From IMG/VR virus record IMGVR_UViG_2690316184_000004, positions 1-7,982 of that record: 7,982 nt of DNA; one strand, given 5' to 3'. The notes below the pieces were generated by a model. That model worked only from the letters and a program-made list of their open reading frames with translations, ran no database searches and was not told where the DNA came from. The DNA is from a virus. Its lineage: Duplodnaviria > Heunggongvirae > Uroviricota > Caudoviricetes. Position 1 is the first letter of the stretch. The number at the start of each line of letters is the position of its first letter. Both the position numbers and the translations under genes were made by a program. Of this stretch, positions 1 to 7,982 are shown piece by piece.

Positions 1-969
1 ATGAGTGAAGTAACAGATTTAGTTGTTATTGAAAAAGCAAATGCAATGACTGTATTTCAGTCTGCCGACCAGATTGAAGAAATCCTTCAAAGGGTTGAAC
101 GTGAAGTTATGTCCTTTGTGCCTGATATCACAACGGCAAAGGGCAGAAAGGAGATCGCTTCTCTGGCGTATAAAGTTGCGCAGACGAAAACATATCTCGA
201 TGGTCTTGGCAAAGACCTTGTTGCTGAACTGAAGGAAATTCCAAAGCTAATTGATGCTAACCGCAAGACAGTGCGTGATCGCCTTGATGAGCTGAAAGCC
301 AAGGCACGCCAGCCTCTTACTGATTATGAGGAAGAACAGGCGCGGATTAAAGCCGAAGAAGAAGCTAAGGCAGCAGCTGAAGCTCTCGCAAAGCAAATTG
401 AGTCTGACCATGAAATAGCGATTTTGATGGATCGCGAATTTGACCGCCAAAGAGAAGAGGCAAGACTCAAAGCGGAGCAGGAAAAGCGAGAGCATGAAGA
501 ACGCTTAAAAAAAGAAGCTGAAGAGAAAGCCAGAGCTGAAGCCGAAGCAAAGGCAAAAGCCGAAATTGAAGCAGCAGCAAGGCGAGAAGCAGAAGCTAAG
601 GCCGCAGCGGAACGTGCAGAGCGTGAACGCATTGAAGCCGAGCAACGAGCACAGCGCGAAGCAAAAGAGGCAGCAGAACGAGCTGAAAGAGAAAAGCAGG
701 CGGCAATTGAAGCAGAACGCCGAAAAGCACAGGAGGAGGCTGAACGAATCCGGCGCGAGGCTGAAGCAAAAGAGCAAGCCAGAATAGCAGAAGAAAAAAG
801 AATCAAGGACGAAGAAGAGCGTAGAGCAAAGGATAAAGCTCACCGGAAAGAAGTAAATAACAAAATACTTGCTGACCTTATCAAGGTTGGCGCATCAGAA
901 GATGTTGCTAAAAATATCATAACAGCCATCGTAAAAGGCGAAGTATTCGCAACAAAAATAACCTACTAA
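1..969 (+). CDS. Phage hypothetical protein with a ~175-aa E/A/K/R-rich helical (coiled-coil or single-alpha-helix-like) central region between globular N- and C-terminal parts; may be 5'-partial since the ORF begins at window base 1
   Basis: 322-aa ORF ending in tandem stops TAATAA (967-972). Residues ~109-284 are almost entirely E, A, K, R in AEAKA/ERAERE-type repeats. Antisense and alternate-frame ORFs in the same span are low-complexity artefacts. First gene of a co-directional phage operon. Confidence 0.6.
   Translation: MSEVTDLVVIEKANAMTVFQSADQIEEILQRVEREVMSFVPDITTAKGRKEIASLAYKVAQTKTYLDGLGKDLVAELKEIPKLIDANRKTVRDRLDELKAKARQPLTDYEEEQARIKAEEEAKAAAEALAKQIESDHEIAILMDREFDRQREEARLKAEQEKREHEERLKKEAEEKARAEAEAKAKAEIEAAARREAEAKAAAERAERERIEAEQRAQREAKEAAERAEREKQAAIEAERRKAQEEAERIRREAEAKEQARIAEEKRIKDEEERRAKDKAHRKEVNNKILADLIKVGASEDVAKNIITAIVKGEVFATKITY
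325..850 (+). repeat. Purine-rich codon-repeat low-complexity tract (GAA/GCA/AAG/CGA codons) encoding the charged helical region of the first CDS
   Basis: Visibly repetitive gaagc/aaggc/gcagaa units in the sequence. It generates spurious ORFs on both strands (87-302, 247-495, 324-806, 505-843 on -, and 566-787 on +). Confidence 0.5.
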
Positions 970-992
970 TAAACCAACATAAGGAACCACCC

Positions 993-1124
993 ATGATTTA
1001 CGCAATCGCGGGAGGCGCTCGCATGGGTGCCTTCCAACTAAATGAATCTTTACTTGAACGAATCACCCGTAAATTACGTGACGGATGGAAAAGAGTTGAG
1101 GTCTTATTATGCGCAATGAAATAG
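993..1124 (+). CDS. cIII: CIII-like small protein (lambda CIII family, inhibitor of host FtsH protease), 43 aa
   Basis: ATG at 993 preceded by AAGGAA (981-986). Product MIYAIAGGARMGAFQLNESLLERITRKLRDGWKRVEVLLCAMK contains the ESLLERITRKLRDGWKR core that I recall as the conserved amphipathic helix of lambda CIII. Below the 60-aa ORF-track cutoff. Sits where cIII lies in lambda, upstream of kil and the recombination genes. Confidence 0.55.
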   Translation: MIYAIAGGARMGAFQLNESLLERITRKLRDGWKRVEVLLCAMK

Positions 1125-1261
1125 CCATTAATCACCAGATGCTTCGTGCGGCACAAAACAAAGCAGTAATAGCCAGATTTATTGGTGATTCAAAAATGTG
1201 GCTTGAAGCAAATAAAGCGATGAAATCAGCTATCAACCTTCCGTGGTATCGCAGGAAATGA
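1109..1261 (+). CDS. Kil-like small protein (candidate host cell-division inhibitor), 50 aa
   Basis: ATG 1109 with GAGG (1098-1101) upstream; overlaps the cIII-like ORF by 16 nt in another frame. Product MRNEIAINHQMLRAAQNKAVIARFIGDSKMWLEANKAMKSAINLPWYRRK. The IA-FIGD-KM motif resembles my recollection of lambda Kil, and the position after cIII matches lambda order. Assignment from memory only. Confidence 0.4.
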   Translation: MRNEIAINHQMLRAAQNKAVIARFIGDSKMWLEANKAMKSAINLPWYRRK

Positions 1262-1416
1262 GTTTTACAGATAACTGGTCAGACGAAGAATTCATTCGTC
1301 AGATGAAAGAATTAATCGGTAACGAAGGAGATATTCATGTCACTTGCAACCACAGTGAAGGAGAGCAAGTTACAGAGGCGCATGTACACGCAGAAAGCTC
1401 TCTGGTATCGCCATAA
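1258..1416 (+). CDS. Hypothetical small phage protein, 52 aa
   Basis: ATG 1258 overlaps the upstream TGA stop (ATGA, 1258-1261), suggesting translational coupling. The only Shine-Dalgarno-like AGGA is 1 nt from the ATG, so the start is uncertain. Product MSFTDNWSDEEFIRQMKELIGNEGDIHVTCNHSEGEQVTEAHVHAESSLVSP. Confidence 0.3.
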   Translation: MSFTDNWSDEEFIRQMKELIGNEGDIHVTCNHSEGEQVTEAHVHAESSLVSP

Positions 1417-1515
1417 TGGCGACCGCGAAGGAATGCGGGTATGCCTTAATTTGTCCCGAGTCGAAGTATTAAATCAGCGTTATTTCCTTGGGCCATGTCC
1501 ATTCTGAGGTGAATT

Positions 1516-2223
1516 ATGGATTTGAACAAATTCGATGAGCCATTCAGCCCTGAAGATATCGAATGGCGAATACAGCAAAGCGGTAAAACACGCGATGGCA
1601 AAGTGTGGGCTATGGTGCTGGCTTATGTCACGAACCGGGCAATCATGAAACGCCTGGACGATGTTTGCGGCAAAGCAGGATGGCGCAATGAATACCGCGA
1701 TATTCCCAACAACGGCGGCGTTGAATGCGGCATATCAATCAAGATTGATTCCGAATGGGTAACCAAATGGGATGCTGCTGAAAACACGCAGGTAGAAGCC
1801 GTCAAAGGTGGTCGTTCAGGTGCAATGAAGCGTGCTGCCGTTCAGTGGGGAATCGGTCGGTATCTGTATAACCTTGAGGAAGGTTTCGCACAAACATCTC
1901 TCGATAAAAAGCAGGGATGGCACAGGGCAAAACTGAAGGATGGAACAGGATTTTACTGGCTCCCTCCATCGCTGCCTGGCTGGGCAATGCCAGTATCAGA
2001 TAACAAACCATCACCAGAAAATACCAACCAGAAATCTCCATCGGTTGACTGCGAACAAATCCTGAAAGACTTCAGCGATTATGCGTCGACAGAAACTGAC
2101 AAGAAAAAACTCATCGAACGTTATCAGCATGACTGGCAATTAATGGCTGGGAATGAGGATGCGCAGGCTAAATGCGTTCAGGTAATGAACATCAGAGTTA
2201 ACGAACTAAAACAGGCGGCATAA
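1516..2223 (+). CDS. Rad52/Sak-like single-strand annealing protein (DUF1071 / Rad52-22 family phage recombinase)
   Basis: 235-aa ORF; GAGG (1506-1509) 6 nt before ATG 1516. Contains the family pattern as I remember it: KRLDDVCGKAGWRNEY ... GISIKIDSEW ... KGGRSGAMKRAAVQWGIGRYLYN (GW...KRA...GIGRYLY). Immediately followed by ssb. Confidence 0.75.
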   Translation: MDLNKFDEPFSPEDIEWRIQQSGKTRDGKVWAMVLAYVTNRAIMKRLDDVCGKAGWRNEYRDIPNNGGVECGISIKIDSEWVTKWDAAENTQVEAVKGGRSGAMKRAAVQWGIGRYLYNLEEGFAQTSLDKKQGWHRAKLKDGTGFYWLPPSLPGWAMPVSDNKPSPENTNQKSPSVDCEQILKDFSDYASTETDKKKLIERYQHDWQLMAGNEDAQAKCVQVMNIRVNELKQAA

Positions 2224-2697
2224 ATGGCAAGCAGAGGCGTAAATAAGGTGATCATTATTGGTCGCCTTGGGCATGATCCAGAAATCAGATATTCACCATC
2301 AGGAACGGCATTTGCAAACCTTACAGTTGCTACGTCAGAACAATGGCGTGATAAGCAAACTGGAGAGCAAAAGGAGCAGACGGAGTGGCACCGTGTGGTA
2401 ATGAGCGGGAAACTGGCAGAAATTGCCAGCGAATATCTGCGAAAAGGCTCTGAGGTTTATCTTGAAGGCAAATTGCGGACAAGAAAATGGCAGGATCAAA
2501 GCGGACAGGATCGGTTCACTACCGAAGTCATCGTGGGCGTTGGTGGAACCATGCAAATGCTTGGTGGCAAGCAAGGAGGAAATGAACAGTCTTCACCTCA
2601 GCGAAATAACGGTCAGCAACAAAGGCAGCAACCTCAGCAGCAGGGAAATCACAGCGAACCACCTATGAACTTCGACGATTCGGATATTCCGTTCTAG
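2224..2697 (+). CDS. ssb: Single-stranded DNA-binding protein (phage-encoded SSB)
   Basis: 157 aa; ATG directly abuts the upstream TAA. N-terminal OB-fold region is near-identical in pattern to E. coli SSB ([58 protein letters not shown]). Gly/Gln-rich linker and acidic C-terminal tail DDSDIPF (E. coli DDDIPF). Confidence 0.95.
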
Positions 2698-2706
2698 GAG
2701 CTGAAA

Positions 2707-3186
2707 ATGAAAATCTGCTCAAGATGCCATCAACAGAAGGAAGAAAGGGACTTTCAAATCAGAAGAGCATCCAGAGATGGATTAACTGCCGCTTGCCGGG
2801 CTTGCCTGGCTGAATACGACAAAGAGCGCGCGGGATTGCCACATCGAGTATCAGCAAGGAGAGAATATCAATCATCGGAACGCGGCAGAGAACGGTGTAA
2901 CGCAGCCAAAAAGCGGTTCATTCAGAGCAACCCATGGAAAAGAAAAGCCCACATCATTGTGGGTAATTTTTTGCGCGACGGTAAGCTAATCCGACCACCA
3001 CAATGTGAGCGCTGCGGATCAGAATGTAAACCACAGGCGCACCACTGCGATTACAGTAAACCTCTTGAAGTAATGTGGCTATGCAAAGCATGTCATGTTG
3101 AATGGCACAAGCACAACAAGCCAATATATCCAGACGAGGAACCAGTAACCCTCCCCTTCCCTCGTCACGCTATTCACGCAATTTAA
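2707..3186 (+). CDS. HNH endonuclease with N-terminal Cys-rich (zinc-ribbon-like) region
   Basis: 159 aa; GGAG (2697-2700) before ATG 2707. C-terminal CERCGS...AHHCDYSKPLEVMWLCKACHVEWHK fits the HNH CxxC...HH...CxxCH pattern. N-terminal CSRCH ... CRAC gives a second Cys pair set. Confidence 0.75.
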   Translation: MKICSRCHQQKEERDFQIRRASRDGLTAACRACLAEYDKERAGLPHRVSARREYQSSERGRERCNAAKKRFIQSNPWKRKAHIIVGNFLRDGKLIRPPQCERCGSECKPQAHHCDYSKPLEVMWLCKACHVEWHKHNKPIYPDEEPVTLPFPRHAIHAI

Positions 3187-3194
3187 GGACTTAC

Positions 3195-3743
3195 ATGAAT
3201 CACTTAATGGTTGACCTTGAAGCAATGGGCAACGGGCCATATGCGCCAGTTATTTCTATTGGGGCGGTATTCTTTGACCCGAATACCGGAGAAACAGGAG
3301 AAGAGTTCTCGGTAAATATCTCGCTTGAGTCATCAATGCGATATCGGGCGCGTCCTGACGCTTCAACGATTTTATGGTGGATGGAACAGAGTGAAGAAGC
3401 CAGAAAATCGCTAACCAGCAACACTCAAGAGCTTTCAACGGCTCTTTCATGGTTATCTGAATTCATCATAAAGAACGCCAACCACAAACTCGTTCAGGTT
3501 TGGGGGAATGGAGCATCATTTGACTGCGTTATTCTCCGCAACAGTTATTCGCTGACAGGGCAGCCAGTTCCGTGGCAGTGGTGGAATGACCGCGACGTAA
3601 GAACAATCGTCGAACTTGGGAAGGTAATAGGATTCGATCCTAAGCGAGATATGCCATTCAAAGGAACTCGCCACAACGCGCTTGATGATGCCATCCACCA
3701 AGCCAAATACGTTTCAGCGATCTGGAAAAAGTTAGCTAAATAA
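3195..3743 (+). CDS. DEDDh-type 3'-5' exonuclease (DnaQ-like fold; resembles the Rv2179c-like exonuclease family found in prophages)
   Basis: Start chosen at ATG 3195 (AAGGAC at 3185-3190) rather than the overlapping 3102 extension. Motif I MVDLEAMG (D-x-E), motif II GNGASFDCVIL (Asp), motif III GTRHNALDDAIHQAKY (His...Asp). Confidence 0.8.
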   Translation: MNHLMVDLEAMGNGPYAPVISIGAVFFDPNTGETGEEFSVNISLESSMRYRARPDASTILWWMEQSEEARKSLTSNTQELSTALSWLSEFIIKNANHKLVQVWGNGASFDCVILRNSYSLTGQPVPWQWWNDRDVRTIVELGKVIGFDPKRDMPFKGTRHNALDDAIHQAKYVSAIWKKLAK

Positions 3744-3759
3744 TCAACAGGAGAAAACC

Positions 3760-4053
3760 ATGCCAGCGCCTCTGTATGGTGCGGATGACCCGCGCCGCTG
3801 TTCCGGCAATTCCGTATCGGAGGTGCTGGATAAATTCAGGAAAAACTACAACCGGATAATGTCGATACCGCAGGAAACGAAAGAGGAAAAGGAATTTCGC
3901 CACTGTATATGGCTTGCAGAGAAAGAAGAACGAGAGCGAATTTACCAGACATCAATCCGACCATTCCGCAAAGCCACATATACCCACTTCCCTGAAATTG
4001 ACCCGCGCCTGCGTAATTACCGCTCACGCTATGGCGCTATCAGTAATGACTGA
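3760..4053 (+). CDS. abc2: Abc2-like protein (P22 anti-RecBCD protein 2 family) - tentative
   Basis: 97 aa; AGGAG (3749-3753) 6 nt before ATG 3760. N-terminus [13 protein letters not shown] and the size match my recollection of P22-type Abc2 annotations in Salmonella/E. coli prophages. Position directly after the recombination genes is consistent. Not verified by alignment. Confidence 0.5.
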
Positions 4054-4063
4054 GGAATTTACC

Positions 4064-4231
4064 ATGAGAGGACTTGCATACAATCCCGGCATTCTTCCGG
4101 CAGAAATGATTATTCGCCAACGCGTAAAGCCAATGCCATCGAGAGAGGAATTGCTTAAGAGAAATTCTTTTCCTTCAGTGAATCAAAACAAATATCTGAA
4201 TGCGATGTGGCGCAAAGGAGGCAACCAGTGA
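4064..4231 (+). CDS. Hypothetical small phage protein, 55 aa
   Basis: ATG 4064 with GAGGAA (4052-4057) upstream; in frame with the track's 3914-4231 ORF but avoids overlap with the upstream gene. Stop TGA overlaps the next GTG start (GTGA, 4228-4231). Product [55 protein letters not shown]. Confidence 0.4.
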
Positions 4232-4671
4232 GCAAGATTGATTATCAAAAGCTTCGTGAAATCGCTGAAAAAACAAAAATTGCTGGTGAAGCACCTGTAA
4301 TGCCTTTCGATCAGCGAATTAATGCGCTTAACGATTTTATGAAGCACTTTTCGCCAGATATCGCGCTGGCATTGTTGGATGAACGGGAAAGAAACCTGCA
4401 ATACATCAAAAGCCGCGATCAGGAGAACGAGGATATTGCGCTAACGGTAGGGAAGCTGCGTGTTGAGCTGGAAGCAGAAAAACAGCGGGCAAAAGTTCTA
4501 TTTATGGAAAATGCTCGGCTTAAGTCAGGCGTAGCCGGTCTGATACACCTCGGTATTCGATATGCAGATGTTGAGGTCATGAGAATTGCTGGAGATGCCC
4601 AGCTTTCTACCCCATGCACTGACAGCATCATAAACAGCATTGCAACAGGCATTCGCATCAAAGGAGAGTGA
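4228..4671 (+). CDS. Ead/Ea22-like protein (N-terminal Ead/Ea22 domain only)
   Basis: Likely GTG start at 4228 with strong AAAGGAGG (4214-4221) 6 nt upstream; the track start at 4207 is also a GTG. N-terminus [15 protein letters not shown]...G matches the (I)DYQALRExAEKA opening typical of Ead/Ea22-like prophage proteins. 147 aa. Confidence 0.6.
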
Positions 4672-4672
4672 G

Positions 4673-4864
4673 ATGAACGGACAAATCTCAATTGTTCGAC
4701 CGGGAGCATGTGACGATCGCGAGATACGAATGATTATTCGTCTGTCGATGGGGAAAACAATAACGGCTCTCATTACTCCAGAAAATCTCGCATTAGCATT
4801 AACCGGAAAGTCAGACCTGCCAGTAGAGCTAAAGCTGCGAAATGTTGAGATTAAGGTGAAATAG
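4673..4864 (+). CDS. Hypothetical small phage protein, 63 aa
   Basis: ATG 4673 with GGAG (4663-4666) 6 nt upstream, 1 nt after the upstream TGA. Product MNGQISIVRPGACDDREIRMIIRLSMGKTITALITPENLALALTGKSDLPVELKLRNVEIKVK. No family recognised. Confidence 0.45.
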   Translation: MNGQISIVRPGACDDREIRMIIRLSMGKTITALITPENLALALTGKSDLPVELKLRNVEIKVK

Positions 4865-4866
4865 CT

Positions 4867-5430
4867 ATGACCACTATAACCAATAAGAAACAGTATCCCA
4901 GCGAGCAATATCTTAATGAGCTGATCACCAACATAGAGTTTGCTGCAAGGGCACCAGTTGAAGTCGTGAGAGCGATGGCAGCAGAGCTACAGAAGCGGCG
5001 CGAAGCTGATAGTGCCGAACCTGCAAGTAATCATGAAGAGTTGCCGCTTGATTATCTCCAAGGTCAAAAAGATGGTCTTGAATGGGCTGCGCAGCTTGCA
5101 GAAGCAAATCACCCACAAACTGGCGACTGGCTTTACGATGACCCGCTGGAGCTGGCTAAAGCTATCAGAAAAGGTCCTGACATGCCCGAATTCGATGGAC
5201 CAACTCCGGTAACTCCGGATGGTTGGATAAGCTGTAGTGAGCAAATGCCTGATGATGGTCAGCACGTAATTATTTTATGTGATGGTGCATTCGTTCTTTA
5301 TGCACAATATCGAGACGGTGAGTTTTTTGATGTTGTCCGCAATGGTGAGGAGTTCTTCGAAACGCAGAGCCGCAATGTAACCGACTGGATGCCTCTACCA
5401 GAACCGCCGCAGGAGGTTAACCGTGGCTAA
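4867..5430 (+). CDS. DUF551-domain phage protein (domain usually found at the C-terminus of Ead/Ea22-like proteins)
   Basis: 187 aa; ATG 4867 two nt after upstream TAG; AAGGTGA (4853-4859) upstream. C-terminal WISCSEQMPDDGQHVIIL...TDWMPLPEPP fits the DUF551 signature (W-I-x-V/C-x-E/D-x-L/M-P ... W-M-P-L-P-E-P-P) as I recall it. Confidence 0.65.
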   Translation: MTTITNKKQYPSEQYLNELITNIEFAARAPVEVVRAMAAELQKRREADSAEPASNHEELPLDYLQGQKDGLEWAAQLAEANHPQTGDWLYDDPLELAKAIRKGPDMPEFDGPTPVTPDGWISCSEQMPDDGQHVIILCDGAFVLYAQYRDGEFFDVVRNGEEFFETQSRNVTDWMPLPEPPQEVNRG

Positions 5431-5707
5431 CCTTCAACTGGTAGTTAACGGTGAATATTTCGACCAGATGAAGTCAGGCGAGAAAACGGAAGAGTATCGC
5501 CTGTGTAATGACTACTGGAATAAGCGAATTATGTTCCGGGAGTATGACCGCCTGATTATCACAAAGGGATATCCGAAGCGCGACGATTCCAGCCGCAGAA
5601 TTGATGTTCCGTATGACGGATATGAAATCAAGACAATCACACATCCGCACTTCGGCGATAAACCGGTAAAGGTATACGCGATAAAGGTGAATATCGGCAA
5701 TGAATAA
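5423..5707 (+). CDS. Hypothetical phage protein, possibly ASCH/PUA-like fold
   Basis: GTG 5423 with AGGAGG (5411-5416) 6 nt upstream; overlaps the upstream stop by 8 nt. 94 aa. Pattern VVNGEYFDQMKSGEKTEEYR ... LIITKGY ... VKVYAIKV loosely resembles ASCH-domain beta-barrel proteins (e.g. YqfB-like). Weak assignment. Confidence 0.5.
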   Translation: MANLQLVVNGEYFDQMKSGEKTEEYRLCNDYWNKRIMFREYDRLIITKGYPKRDDSSRRIDVPYDGYEIKTITHPHFGDKPVKVYAIKVNIGNE

Positions 5708-5742
5708 CAATCCTCGCACTCGCGGTGATTTCTTTTATCTGA

Positions 5743-5766
5743 ACTCGCTACGGCGAGTTTTGTTTT
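5743..5766 (+). terminator. Intrinsic terminator-like hairpin (internal operon terminator or attenuator)
   Basis: 6-bp perfect stem ACTCGC (5743-5748) / GCGAGT (5753-5758), 4-nt loop TACG, followed by TTTTGTTTT. Lies in the 72-nt gap between CDS 5423-5707 and CDS 5780-5947. Confidence 0.4.
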
Positions 5767-5779
5767 ATGGAGATGATAA

Positions 5780-5947
5780 ATGCACTTCCGAGTCACAGGT
5801 GAATGGAATGGAGAACCATTCAACAGGGTTATCGAAGCAGAGGACATCAACGACTGCTATGCCCACTGGATGCTGTGGGCGCAGATAGCGCATGCAGACG
5901 TAACCAATATTCGAATTGAAGAACTGAAAGAACACCAAGCCGCCTGA
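5780..5947 (+). CDS. Hypothetical small phage protein, 55 aa
   Basis: ATG 5780 with GGAG (5769-5772) 7 nt upstream; stop TGA sits in the loop of the downstream terminator. Product MHFRVTGEWNGEPFNRVIEAEDINDCYAHWMLWAQIAHADVTNIRIEELKEHQAA. Preferred over the overlapping track ORF 5700-5888. Confidence 0.4.
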   Translation: MHFRVTGEWNGEPFNRVIEAEDINDCYAHWMLWAQIAHADVTNIRIEELKEHQAA

Positions 5948-5962
5948 TGGCGGTTTTTTATT
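5939..5962 (+). terminator. Rho-independent terminator
   Basis: GC-rich stem CCGCC (5940-5944) / GGCGG (5949-5953) with 4-nt loop TGAT, followed by T-run TTTTTTATT (5954-5962). Confidence 0.6.
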
Positions 5963-6004
5963 ACCTGATTTGCAGGTTCGATTCCCTATTCGGAGATAGC
6001 ACTC

Positions 6005-6205
6005 ATGCAACACGAACTACAACCTGATTCACTGGTTGATTTGAAATTCATCATGGCCGATACTGGCTTTGGTAAAACCTTCATCTATGACCGGATTAAG
6101 TCCGGCGACCTGCCAAAAGCCAAAGTTATCCACGGTCGAGCAAGATGGTTATATCGTGACCATTGTGAATTCAAAAATAAGCTCTTAAGCCGCGCCAATG
6201 GGTAA
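6005..6205 (+). CDS. AlpA/Xis-like prophage DNA-binding protein (excisionase or transcriptional regulator family)
   Basis: 66 aa; GGAGA (5991-5995) upstream of ATG 6005. FIMADTGFGKTFIYDRIKSGDLPKAKVIHGRARWLYRDHCEF fits the AlpA-family pattern (helix-turn-helix, tG.s.stIY..i..G.FP, conserved Trp). Last gene of the phage operon, where xis sits in lambdoid phages. Confidence 0.7.
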   Translation: MQHELQPDSLVDLKFIMADTGFGKTFIYDRIKSGDLPKAKVIHGRARWLYRDHCEFKNKLLSRANG

Positions 6206-6221
6206 AATAGCGGGTAAAATA
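6200..6221 (+). repeat. Tandem direct repeat GGGTAAAATA x2 (12-bp period) overlapping the AlpA-like stop codon
   Basis: GGGTAAAATA at 6200-6209 and again at 6212-6221, separated by GC. Each copy contains a -10-like TAAAAT. Confidence 0.4.
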
Positions 6222-6254
6222 TTTCTCACATCTAAAAAACACCATTCCAATCAA

Positions 6255-6288
6255 TCCCCTGCTGCTTCAAGTAGATGTCTGCAGGGGA
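6255..6288. repeat. 8-bp inverted repeat TCCCCTGC / GCAGGGGA with 18-nt spacer
   Basis: TCCCCTGC (6255-6262) is the exact reverse complement of GCAGGGGA (6281-6288). No U-tract follows on either strand. Confidence 0.35.
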
Positions 6289-6681
6289 CACCAGATACCC
6301 TTCAAACGAAATCTACCTTCACCCCGTAAAAGATGGGTTTGGCAGCACACTTGCCTTATATCTACTCATTTTTACTGCAACAGGTTGAAATCTCAGCACT
6401 GTCAGAAAGCGCTGATGACTAAACAGCCCTGAGCCGGGCGATGTAACCATCACACAGAATCCTGATAGCGAAATATGGCGTGACTCGATACTTCACTCCG
6501 CAATGCATTCCTTGATGAATTCGCAGGACCGTGATACACGGGACAGGTCACTGAATGACGACAATGTCCTGGAAATCAGCGAACCGCGCATCTGAAGTAC
6601 ATTTGAGCGACTGTACCAGAACATGAATGAGGCGTTTGGATTAGGCGATTATTAGCAGGGCTAAGCATTTTACTATTATTA

Positions 6682-6725
6682 TTTTCCGGTTGAGGGATAT
6701 AGAGCTATCGACAACAACCGGAAAA
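6682..6725. repeat. 11-bp perfect inverted repeat TTTTCCGGTTG / CAACCGGAAAA with 22-nt spacer, 10 bp from the transporter stop codon
   Basis: TTTTCCGGTTG (6682-6692) and CAACCGGAAAA (6715-6725) are exact reverse complements. The T/A runs are part of the stem, not a 3' U-tract, so it is not a canonical intrinsic terminator on either strand. Confidence 0.4.
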
Positions 6726-6734
6726 AGTTTACGT

Positions 6735-7982
6735 CTATATTGCTGAAGGTACAGGCGTTTCCATAACTATTTGCTCGCGTTTTTTACTCAAGAAGAAAAT
6801 GCCAAATAGCAACATCAGGCAGACAATACCCGAAATTGCGAAGAAAACTGTCTGGTAGCCTGCGTGGTCAAAGAGTATCCCAGTCGGCGTTGAAAGCAGC
6901 ACAATCCCAAGCGAACTGGCAATTTGAAAACCAATCAGAAAGATCGTCGACGACAGGCGCTTATCAAAGTTTGCCACGCTGTATTTGAAGACGGATATGA
7001 CACAAAGTGGAACCTCAATGGCATGTAACAACTTCACTAATGAAATAATCCAGGGGTTAACGAACAGCGCGCAGGAAAGGATACGCAACGCCATAATCAC
7101 AACTCCGATAAGTAATGCATTTTTTGGCCCTACCCGATTCACAAAGAAAGGAATAATCGCCATGCACAGCGCTTCGAGTACCACCTGGAATGAGTTGAGA
7201 TAACCATACAGGCGCGTTCCTACATCGTGTGATTCGAATAAACCTGCATAAAAGACAGGAAAAAGTTGTTGATCAAAAATGTTATAGAAAGACCACGTCC
7301 CCACAATAAATATGACGAAAACCCAGAAGTTTCGATCCTTGAAAACTGCGATAAAATCCTCTTTTTTTACCCCTCCCGCATCTGCCGCTACGCACTGGTG
7401 ATCCTTATCTTTAAAACGCATGTTGATCATCATAAATACAGCGCCAAATAGCGAGACCAACCAGAAGTTGATATGGGGACTGATACTAAAAAATATGCCG
7501 GCAAAGAACGCGCCAATAGCATAGCCAAAAGATCCCCAGGCGCGCGCTGTTCCATATTCGAAATGAAAATTTCGCGCCATTTTTTCGGTGAAGCTATCAA
7601 GCAAACCGCATCCCGCCAGATACCCCAAGCCAAAAAATAGCGCCCCCGGAATTAGACCTACAGAAAAATTGCTTTGCAGTAACGGTTCATAAACGTAAAT
7701 CATAAACGGTCCGGTCAAGACCAGGATGAAACTCATACACCAGATGAGCGGTTTCTTCAGACCGAGTTTATCCTGAACGATGCCGTAGAACATCATAAAT
7801 AGAATGCTGGTAAACTGGTTGACCGAATAAAGTGTACCTAATTCCGTCCCTGTCAACCCTAGATGTCCTTTCAGCCAAATAGCGTATAACGACCACCACA
7901 GCGACCAGGAAATAAAAAAGAGAAATGAGTAACTGGATGCAAAACGATAGTACGCATTTCTGAATGGAATATTCAGTGCCAT
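6735..7982 (-). CDS. MFS transporter of the LacY-like oligosaccharide:H+ symporter family (substrate unknown)
   Basis: 415-aa ORF on the - strand with ATG at the very window edge (7980-7982), stop TAG at 6735-6737. Highly hydrophobic with about 12 predicted TM segments. N-terminal NAYYRFASSYSFLFFISWSLWWSLYAIWL parallels LacY [28 protein letters not shown]. The true start may lie beyond the window. Confidence 0.85.
   Translation of the reverse strand: MALNIPFRNAYYRFASSYSFLFFISWSLWWSLYAIWLKGHLGLTGTELGTLYSVNQFTSILFMMFYGIVQDKLGLKKPLIWCMSFILVLTGPFMIYVYEPLLQSNFSVGLIPGALFFGLGYLAGCGLLDSFTEKMARNFHFEYGTARAWGSFGYAIGAFFAGIFFSISPHINFWLVSLFGAVFMMINMRFKDKDHQCVAADAGGVKKEDFIAVFKDRNFWVFVIFIVGTWSFYNIFDQQLFPVFYAGLFESHDVGTRLYGYLNSFQVVLEALCMAIIPFFVNRVGPKNALLIGVVIMALRILSCALFVNPWIISLVKLLHAIEVPLCVISVFKYSVANFDKRLSSTIFLIGFQIASSLGIVLLSTPTGILFDHAGYQTVFFAISGIVCLMLLFGIFFLSKKREQIVMETPVPSAI

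Follow-up and report, generated by a model that had tools for sequence, protein, structure and literature searches.

We analyzed a 7,982-nt stretch of viral DNA (positions 1 to 7,982 of IMG/VR record IMGVR_UViG_2690316184_000004; here referred to as the window) and focused on a block of six co-oriented open reading frames (ORFs), o1 to o6, that occupies positions 4064 to 5947 between the anti-RecBCD gene abc2 and a TorI-type excisionase gene, xis. In our best explanation, the block is very probably the accessory segment of the early-left operon that is known as the "ea" region in P22, the "hka" region in HK620, and the "exo-xis" region in lambda. A first-pass annotation had placed a six-ORF accessory block between recombination genes and xis, and the ORFs that it cited were all found in place. 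Three of them (o1, o3, and o6) had been listed there as lacking a recognizable family, which proved incorrect: they match DUF2737 (PF10930, E 9e-32), PHROG 1222, and PHROG 676, respectively. By profile and sequence comparison, each of the six genes is assigned to an already catalogued family, and each has 90% identity or more to annotated proteins. The block and its two anchors are as follows.

Positions 3760 to 4053, plus strand: abc2, anti-RecBCD gene and left anchor (Pfam PF11043 over its full length, E 7e-63; PHROG 656).
Positions 4064 to 4231, plus strand: o1, 55-aa DUF2737 protein of the P22 orf56/HK620 hkaI family (PF10930).
Positions 4228 to 4671, plus strand: o2, 147-aa Ead/Ea22-like protein (PF13935, with a PHROG 11761-type C terminus).
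Positions 4673 to 4864, plus strand: o3, 63-aa beta-rich protein, homologue of HK620 hkaF (PHROG 1222).
Positions 4867 to 5430, plus strand: o4, 187-aa protein resembling P22 EaA and HK620 hkaE (PHROG 6847 N terminus, DUF551 C terminus).
Positions 5423 to 5707, plus strand: o5, 94-aa protein with a predicted ASCH fold (PUA-like beta-barrel), from its motif, an AF2 model, and Foldseek.
Positions 5780 to 5947, plus strand: o6, 55-aa homologue of lambda orf55 (lambdap35; ORF55 of phage 434) (PHROG 676, E 1e-39).
Positions 6005 to 6205, plus strand: TorI-type xis, right anchor (HK620 hkaC/TorI, 100% identity).

The closest parallels in gene order come from HK620 and P22, in which the same anchors delimit the region, a DUF2737 gene lies 10 nt past abc2, and xis stands at the far end. 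The ea genes listed for P22 are abc2, orf56, eaE, eaF, eaD, eaI, eaA, eaG, eaC, and xis, and those of HK620 are hkaD to hkaJ. The HK620 order hkaI, hkaG, hkaF, hkaE corresponds to DUF2737, Ead, HkaF, and DUF551 in the window. However, o2 and o4 are different recombinants that are only 30 to 40% identical to HK620 hkaG and hkaE, the slot of hkaD/eaG is taken by the ASCH gene and orf55, and HK620 hkaH, P22 eaE/eaF/eaC, and EaG are missing. Lambda's exo-xis region (orf60a, orf63, orf61, ea22, ea8.5, and orf55) occupies the same place in the pL operon, between recombination genes and xis. Its orf55 is the counterpart of o6 (94.5% amino acid identity), with an upstream junction and a downstream terminator hairpin that are conserved at ~95% DNA identity, and o2 shares the N-terminal and central parts of Ea22. 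In contrast, ea8.5, orf61, orf63, and orf60a are absent from the window, which has DUF2737, HkaF, DUF551, and ASCH genes instead; its recombination module consists of a Rad52-like gene, an SSB gene, and abc2 rather than exo/bet/gam; and its TorI-type xis is unrelated to lambda Xis. The first-pass annotation had likened the block to the ea/b2-proximal region of lambda. The idea of a nonessential, variable, early-left accessory segment stands, but the appropriate lambda analogy is exo-xis, not b2.

The six ORFs are genuine genes, most of them translationally coupled, and not chance reading frames. PGAP/RefSeq calls the same six genes in Escherichia coli KD602, which carries an identical block (99.9% identity). 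Shine-Dalgarno sequences lie 6 to 8 nt upstream of all six starts, as had been anticipated: GAGGA 7 nt from ATG 4064 (o1), AAGGAGG 6 nt from GTG 4228 (o2), AAGGAG 6 nt from ATG 4673 (o3), AAGGTG 8 nt from ATG 4867 (o4), AGGAGG 6 nt from GTG 5423 (o5), and GGAG 7 nt from ATG 5780 (o6). GTG 4228, preceded by AAGGAGG, is most likely the start of the Ead/Ea22 gene o2, rather than the GTG at 4207 given in the ORF list. Spacing between abc2 and o1 is 10 nt, o1 and o2 share a 4-nt GTGA overlap, o2/o3 and o3/o4 are separated by 1 nt and 2 nt, and o4 and o5 overlap by 8 nt. The o5/o6 and o6/xis gaps measure 72 nt and 57 nt, and both contain terminator-like hairpins. The tight coupling claimed for the junctions thus applies to five of the seven between abc2 and xis and not to these last two.

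We compared these genes with their counterparts in 160 related loci from IMG/VR, taken as the best 80 matches to each of the anchors xis and abc2, a biased and closely related sample. Ratios of nonsynonymous to synonymous substitution (dN/dS; pooled, Nei-Gojobori) were 0.30 for o1, 0.15 for o3, 0.16 for o5, and 0.25 for o6, calculated from 34, 13, 19, and 59 distinct alleles besides the window's own; the reference values were 0.08 for abc2 (69 alleles) and 0.002 for xis (66 alleles). Variable sites were significantly enriched at third codon positions in o3 and o5 (P = 1e-4 for each), marginally in o1 (P = 0.04), and weakly in o6 (P = 0.075). The stop codon was unchanged in every full-length copy of the four genes (163 copies). 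The dN/dS analysis covers o1, o3, o5, and o6, as full-length relatives of o2 and o4 are nearly absent from the sampled loci; intact copies elsewhere include the o2 allele in prophage L090 and the o2 and o4 alleles in KD602. The purifying selection and constant stops agree with the first-pass view that the ORFs are real, and the lack of selection that would have spoken against it was not what we found.

The o1 protein matches PF10930 with 109.2 bits (gathering cutoff, 25) over profile positions 1 to 51 of 53 and is 98% identical to HK620 hkaI and 77% identical to P22 orf56. A DUF2737 gene lies directly 3' of abc2 in 65 of 69 distinct abc2-xis intervals, and the family is represented in 653 phage records, some of them from virulent Guernseyvirinae. 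In the Jersey- and Kaguna-type virulent phages, no abc2 is annotated within 2.5 kb on either side of the DUF2737 gene, which argues that the function of o1 is independent of Abc2.

The o2 protein passes the cutoff of PF13935, the family of lambda Ea22 and P22 EaD (76.9 bits against 27), over profile positions 1 to 139, with the N-terminal segment included, and it shows 55% identity to lambda Ea22 across residues 1 to 87. Profiling the depth of DNA sharing across 163 loci showed a mosaic allele with a rare N terminus, a common center, and a rare C terminus. PGAP labels the allele "partial" in KD602; despite this flag, the Pfam match begins at profile position 1, and a full-length copy with 96.6% identity is present in L090. 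Lambda Ea22 has a central coiled coil and a variable C-terminal domain, forms tetramers, and is pro-lysogenic, and DUF551, the domain found in o4, has been described as one such C-terminal domain and as portable (PMC7093339, PMC10834534). Residues 50 to 95 of o2 include many charged and heptad-like residues, as judged by eye only.

The o3 protein matches PHROG 1222 over its full length (E 1.2e-40, positions 1 to 63 of 63) and is 94% identical to HK620 hkaF, and it is co-inherited with the o2-type C terminus. Its family has 86 members, all from Enterobacterales. A structural model (pLDDT 78) consists of three strands followed by a helix and one last strand, and a fold search with it returned no informative structural neighbor. 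A profile search with the o3 family, covering 1.84 billion representative proteins, gave matches in repeat proteins (Flg_new, RCC1, and cadherin-like), which we set aside as heterogeneous, weak repeats that add up to a score; an AbrB/MazE-like C-terminal half was a guess that no search supported. Upstream of ATG 4673, the o3 frame stays open for another 11 codons (window positions 4640 to 4672, …AFASKESE), and a few database proteins (P0304 to P0306) that join an Ead/Ea22 N terminus to o3 read through exactly that peptide. We did not adopt such fusions, as Ead and o3 occupy distinct ORFs in different frames in 17 of 17 sampled loci and in the window, and the fused versions may be frameshift variants.

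In o4, residues 119 to 182 match the whole DUF551 profile (PF04448; 73.1 bits against a cutoff of 22, positions 1 to 68 of 68), and the protein is 41% identical to the P22 EaA C terminus. The DNA encoding its N terminus is common to only 1 to 3 of the 163 loci, compared with 65 to 73 for the start of DUF551. Searches of PDB sequences with o1 to o6, using single sequences and profiles, gave chance matches only, and an NCBIfam scan of the six block proteins and four other window genes gave no match.

For the 94-aa protein o5, the first-pass suggestion of an ASCH/PUA-like fold gained support. Its AF2 model (pLDDT 85, pTM 0.73) has a helix at residues 10 to 18 between strands 1 and 2, and the top Foldseek matches in the PDB are all ASCH proteins (3iuw, 2z0t, 1xne, YqfB 9kyh, and ZmASCH 5gus; probability 0.77 to 0.99, E 8e-3 to 0.2, TM 0.47 to 0.55). 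GxKxxExR, the ASCH motif of the helix 1-strand 2 region (PMC6803910), is present as G19, K21, E24, and R26, lies between helix 10-18 and strand 23-27 of the model, and is invariant in 54 sequences. NCBI labels as "ASCH domain-containing" all of the source-named proteins among 569 homologues. The Pfam ASCH profile (PF04266) did not match o5 at E values up to 5 and gave weak matches in 18 of 54 relatives (best E, 0.002). Compared with established members of the superfamily (E. coli YqfB, an ac4C amidohydrolase; the Zymomonas ASCH RNase; and human TRIP4 and EOLA1), o5 has the motif at the same place but is very small, stands alone, and falls below the Pfam threshold with a TM score of ~0.5. From its fold and motif, o5 would be expected to bind nucleic acid or a modified nucleoside. 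A few related prophages have an 11-codon ASCH stump (MANLQLAVKGE*) fused straight to the conserved 72-nt junction that follows o5 in the window; the stump has the appearance of a deletion scar and indicates that the ASCH cassette can be lost.

The o6 gene is accompanied by the following neighboring elements.

Positions 5708 to 5779, plus strand: conserved 72-nt junction that contains two terminator-like hairpins and the ribosome-binding site of o6 (common to 98 to 112 of the 163 loci).
Positions 5937 to 5956, plus strand: terminator-like hairpin over the o6 stop codon, followed by T6 (from folding of 5925 to 5975).
Positions 5960 to 5998, plus strand: putative counterpart of the cII-activated "phage integration" promoter P_I annotated in HK620 (from alignment to that annotation).

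The 94.5% identity between o6 and lambda orf55 extends over 55 of 55 residues, and from the upstream junction to the T-run past the downstream hairpin the module is ~95% identical to lambda at the DNA level. The gene is present in 45 of the 69 distinct intervals and lies 57 nt upstream of xis, compared with 39 nt in lambda. The 72-nt junction is more widely shared than either flanking gene, with at least 10 different genes located upstream of it and at least 3 downstream. Each of its two hairpins (5712 to 5727 and 5741 to 5760) is followed by a T-rich run. Hairpin 2 folds with -11.9 kcal/mol (z = -3.5), and its sequence variants carry wobble-compatible changes only, with no compensatory double changes among them and hence no evidence of covariation. 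Hairpin 1 is weakened in the window by a G-to-T change (GCGGTG versus GCGGGG). In its place, other loci have two GC-rich hairpins of unrelated sequence (CCGCTTAATGCGG and CCCGCCGAGTGCGGG), which argues that structure is kept at this position and sequence is not. The 51-nt stretch from 5925 to 5975, which contains the hairpin over the stop codon, folds with -13.1 kcal/mol, and that hairpin is identical in lambda, HK620, and HF4s. No RNA family was returned when the entire window was searched against Rfam at E values up to 1.

The 3' end of o6 (…VTNIRIEELKEHQAA) doubles as the 3' end of the unrelated HK620 hkaD and of many chimeric proteins. HK620, which has the unrelated hkaD/EaG upstream, shares window positions 5900 to 6004, comprising the last ~45 nt of o6, the hairpin, and the P_I-like region. 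This stretch is best described, from its pattern of sharing, as a conserved recombination boundary, and the shared end explains the many chimeric database proteins that terminate in ...NIRIEELKEHQAA. In the P_I-like region, the first half-site reads TTAC in the window and TTGC in HK620, and the annotated cII-binding site (window positions 5961 to 5973) is TTACCTGATTTGC here and TTGCCTGATTTGC in HK620. We considered and dismissed the idea that TTAC is a lesion, since 16 of 69 matching sites of the sampled loci carry it, which makes it a common polymorphism. Lambda Orf55 has been modeled as three strands and one helix in a T7 Gp2-like arrangement and speculatively placed on RNA polymerase (PMC8614690). 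On the basis of that published model, o6 may act on RNA polymerase; our profile search of PDB sequences with o6 gave chance matches only and did not find Gp2. The "ORF55" of a study on DRT4 (PMC12783706) is a phage T5 protein that shares only the name with o6.

As the first-pass annotation had proposed, gene content between the two anchors is variable among syntenic prophages. The 69 distinct abc2-xis intervals obtained from the sampled loci range from 82 to 5,324 bp in length and show 15 patterns of gene presence and absence, none of which is the combination in the window. Besides o1 (65 intervals) and o6 (45), o5 is found in 17, o3 in 8, o2 in 7, and o4 in 1. Among 5,426 complete E. coli genomes, the whole block occurs in one (KD602) and pieces of it occur in 3,889. 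The depth profile shows sharp steps inside and between genes, and the exchange points fall at short conserved junctions. The block genes are nonuniversal cassettes that are swapped among lambdoid phages at such junctions, with the consequence that each prophage has a different combination; this is the classic pattern of cassette exchange in lambdoid phages. In KD602 (locus L164, positions 6607 to 10241), xis is followed by an integrase gene that adjoins a gene pair for an RloB-family protein and an AAA ATPase, so that the same accessory block stands in a different integration context.

The genes of the block are co-oriented and largely coupled, and a crude consensus scan found no sigma-70-like promoter between positions 3700 and 6600. 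For these reasons, and because terminator-like hairpins lie within the block, its genes would most likely be transcribed early in infection or after induction, from pL and with antitermination by N/gp24. The experimental literature on the exo-xis region points to modulation of the lysis-lysogeny decision (PMC7093339, PMC3824215, PMC10834534); when supplied on a plasmid, the lambda or phi24B exo-xis region reduced lysogenization and strengthened induction (PMC3824215). By analogy with these experiments, which concerned homologues from lambda and phi24B, the block's products would fine-tune the lysis-lysogeny decision and host physiology, and the Ea22-type protein o2 would be an oligomeric pro-lysogenic factor.

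Several points weigh against this reading. The operon membership of the block is inferred, as the window includes neither pL nor the antiterminator gene and the promoter scan was crude. The loci compared, being the best 80 matches for each anchor, are closely related to one another. The o2 protein resembles lambda Ea22 only at residues 1 to 87 and has a different, PHROG 11761-type C terminus, and results obtained in lambda may not transfer to the diverged alleles of the six proteins in the window. The ASCH assignment of o5 comes with low scores (a best Foldseek E value of 8e-3, a TM score of ~0.5, and a Pfam threshold that is not reached).

The first-pass annotation had regarded the block as the most likely place for anti-defense functions. 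On this view, which we consider unlikely, one or more of the six proteins would inhibit a host antiphage system, as the neighboring Abc2 does RecBCD. The block does lie directly 3' of abc2, and relatives of the window prophage carry ral further upstream; its proteins are small; it is highly variable, cassette-like, and presumably expressed early, like accessory regions rich in counter-defense genes (bioRxiv 10.1101/2023.04.06.535777); and ASCH/PUA-like domains are able to read modified bases (PMC7641849). With the counter-defense accessory regions described by Silas et al., the block has in common a variable array of cassettes between conserved anchors, here beside a known counter-defense gene, abc2. 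However, none of the six proteins is among the genes screened in that work, their peptides are absent from its supplements, and no counter-defense or cell-death-trigger phenotype has been reported for them. PADLOC models gave no matches to the six proteins, and we found no paper linking these families to counter-defense. The fold and profile searches proposed in the first-pass annotation gave families for all of the small ORFs but no informative match to an anti-defense fold, and sequence and fold searches of the PDB matched no characterized anti-defense protein. DUF2737 genes also occur away from abc2, in virulent phages, and the published phenotypes of the exo-xis region are developmental.

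Decay is a somewhat less probable account, in which illegitimate recombination in a defective prophage would have left some of the ORFs nonfunctional, the recombinant o2 and o4 in particular. It draws on the PGAP call of a partial pseudogene for the o2 allele, the near absence of full-length relatives of o2 and o4 in the sampled loci, the many database versions of o6 and o3 that are chimeric or truncated, and the ASCH stump joined directly to the junction in a few loci. Against it stand the strong ribosome-binding site of o2 and its Pfam match from position 1, the alleles that are intact in L090 (o2) and KD602 (o2 and o4), and the purifying selection and invariant stop codons of o1, o3, o5, and o6. 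We give least weight to lysogenic conversion, in which some of the genes, especially the hairpin-bracketed orf55 module, would be "morons" expressed from the prophage to the benefit of the host (for example, in superinfection exclusion or stress tolerance). The orf55 module is indeed discrete (~250 bp), ~95% identical between lambda and P22-like phages, and flanked by terminator-like hairpins on both sides, and a DUF551 protein of the cryptic prophage CPS-53, YfdS, is reported to change sensitivity to oxidative stress (PMC10834534). A moron would have its own promoter and terminator; a terminator-like hairpin follows o6, but no sigma-70-like site precedes any of the six genes. Moreover, none of the six matches a PADLOC defense model, and they are co-oriented and coupled with the early-left operon. 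An early-left accessory segment of the ea/hka/exo-xis kind remains our preferred reading of the block.

The remainder of the window is consistent with this placement and contains two further features at its right end.

Positions ~6279 to 6294: attR, about 75 to 90 nt 3' of xis (from comparison of window and HK620 DNA).
Positions 6735 to 7982, minus strand: cscB, sucrose permease gene on the host side, 3' of attR.

All sizeable ORFs between positions 1 and 6205 are on the plus strand. Upstream of the block, matches to Pfam and PHROG together with RefSeq annotations of relatives give the following gene order: a TolA-like coiled-coil protein; cIII and kil; a Rad52-like recombinase, SSB, and an HNH/Zn-finger protein; a 3'-5' exonuclease; and abc2, which is 92% identical to that of P22. 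Similarity to HK620 phage DNA stops at ~6293, where the HK620 attP core sits, and is followed by host DNA with cscB. The window can thus be identified from its sequence as the right end of an HK620/P22-like (Lederbergvirus-type) prophage in which xis and attR abut cscB. No tRNA gene and no int gene were found in the window. The absence of int 3' of xis is explained by the position of attP between xis and int in HK620-type phages, and a right end without either gene agrees with the HK620/KplE1 layout. The HNH/Zn-finger gene (2707 to 3186; PHROG 2340, with a Lar-like N terminus) lies between ssb and the exonuclease gene. In strain 23CRST032, a comparably sized gene for an HNH endonuclease lies between the Rad52-like gene and ssb, and KD602 lacks such a gene; the gene has the look of a mobile insertion.

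Regions of this kind are already known: the segment itself, its variability, and each of its families are represented in the literature and in annotation pipelines, and an identical block is present in a RefSeq genome. Its practical value lies in ORFs that are conserved coding genes, one of them present in phage lambda, and in clean cassette boundaries that lend themselves to deletion and swap experiments. There is a small chance that the block encodes one or more host-takeover or counter-defense factors with a new mechanism, the best candidates being the stand-alone ASCH protein and the Orf55 homologue. If so, o5, with its intact GxKxxExR pocket, could read or remove a modified nucleoside, and the persistence of a nearly identical orf55 module across unrelated integration modules (lambda Xis and TorI type) would reflect selection, beside xis, for the RNA polymerase-modulating function proposed for Orf55.

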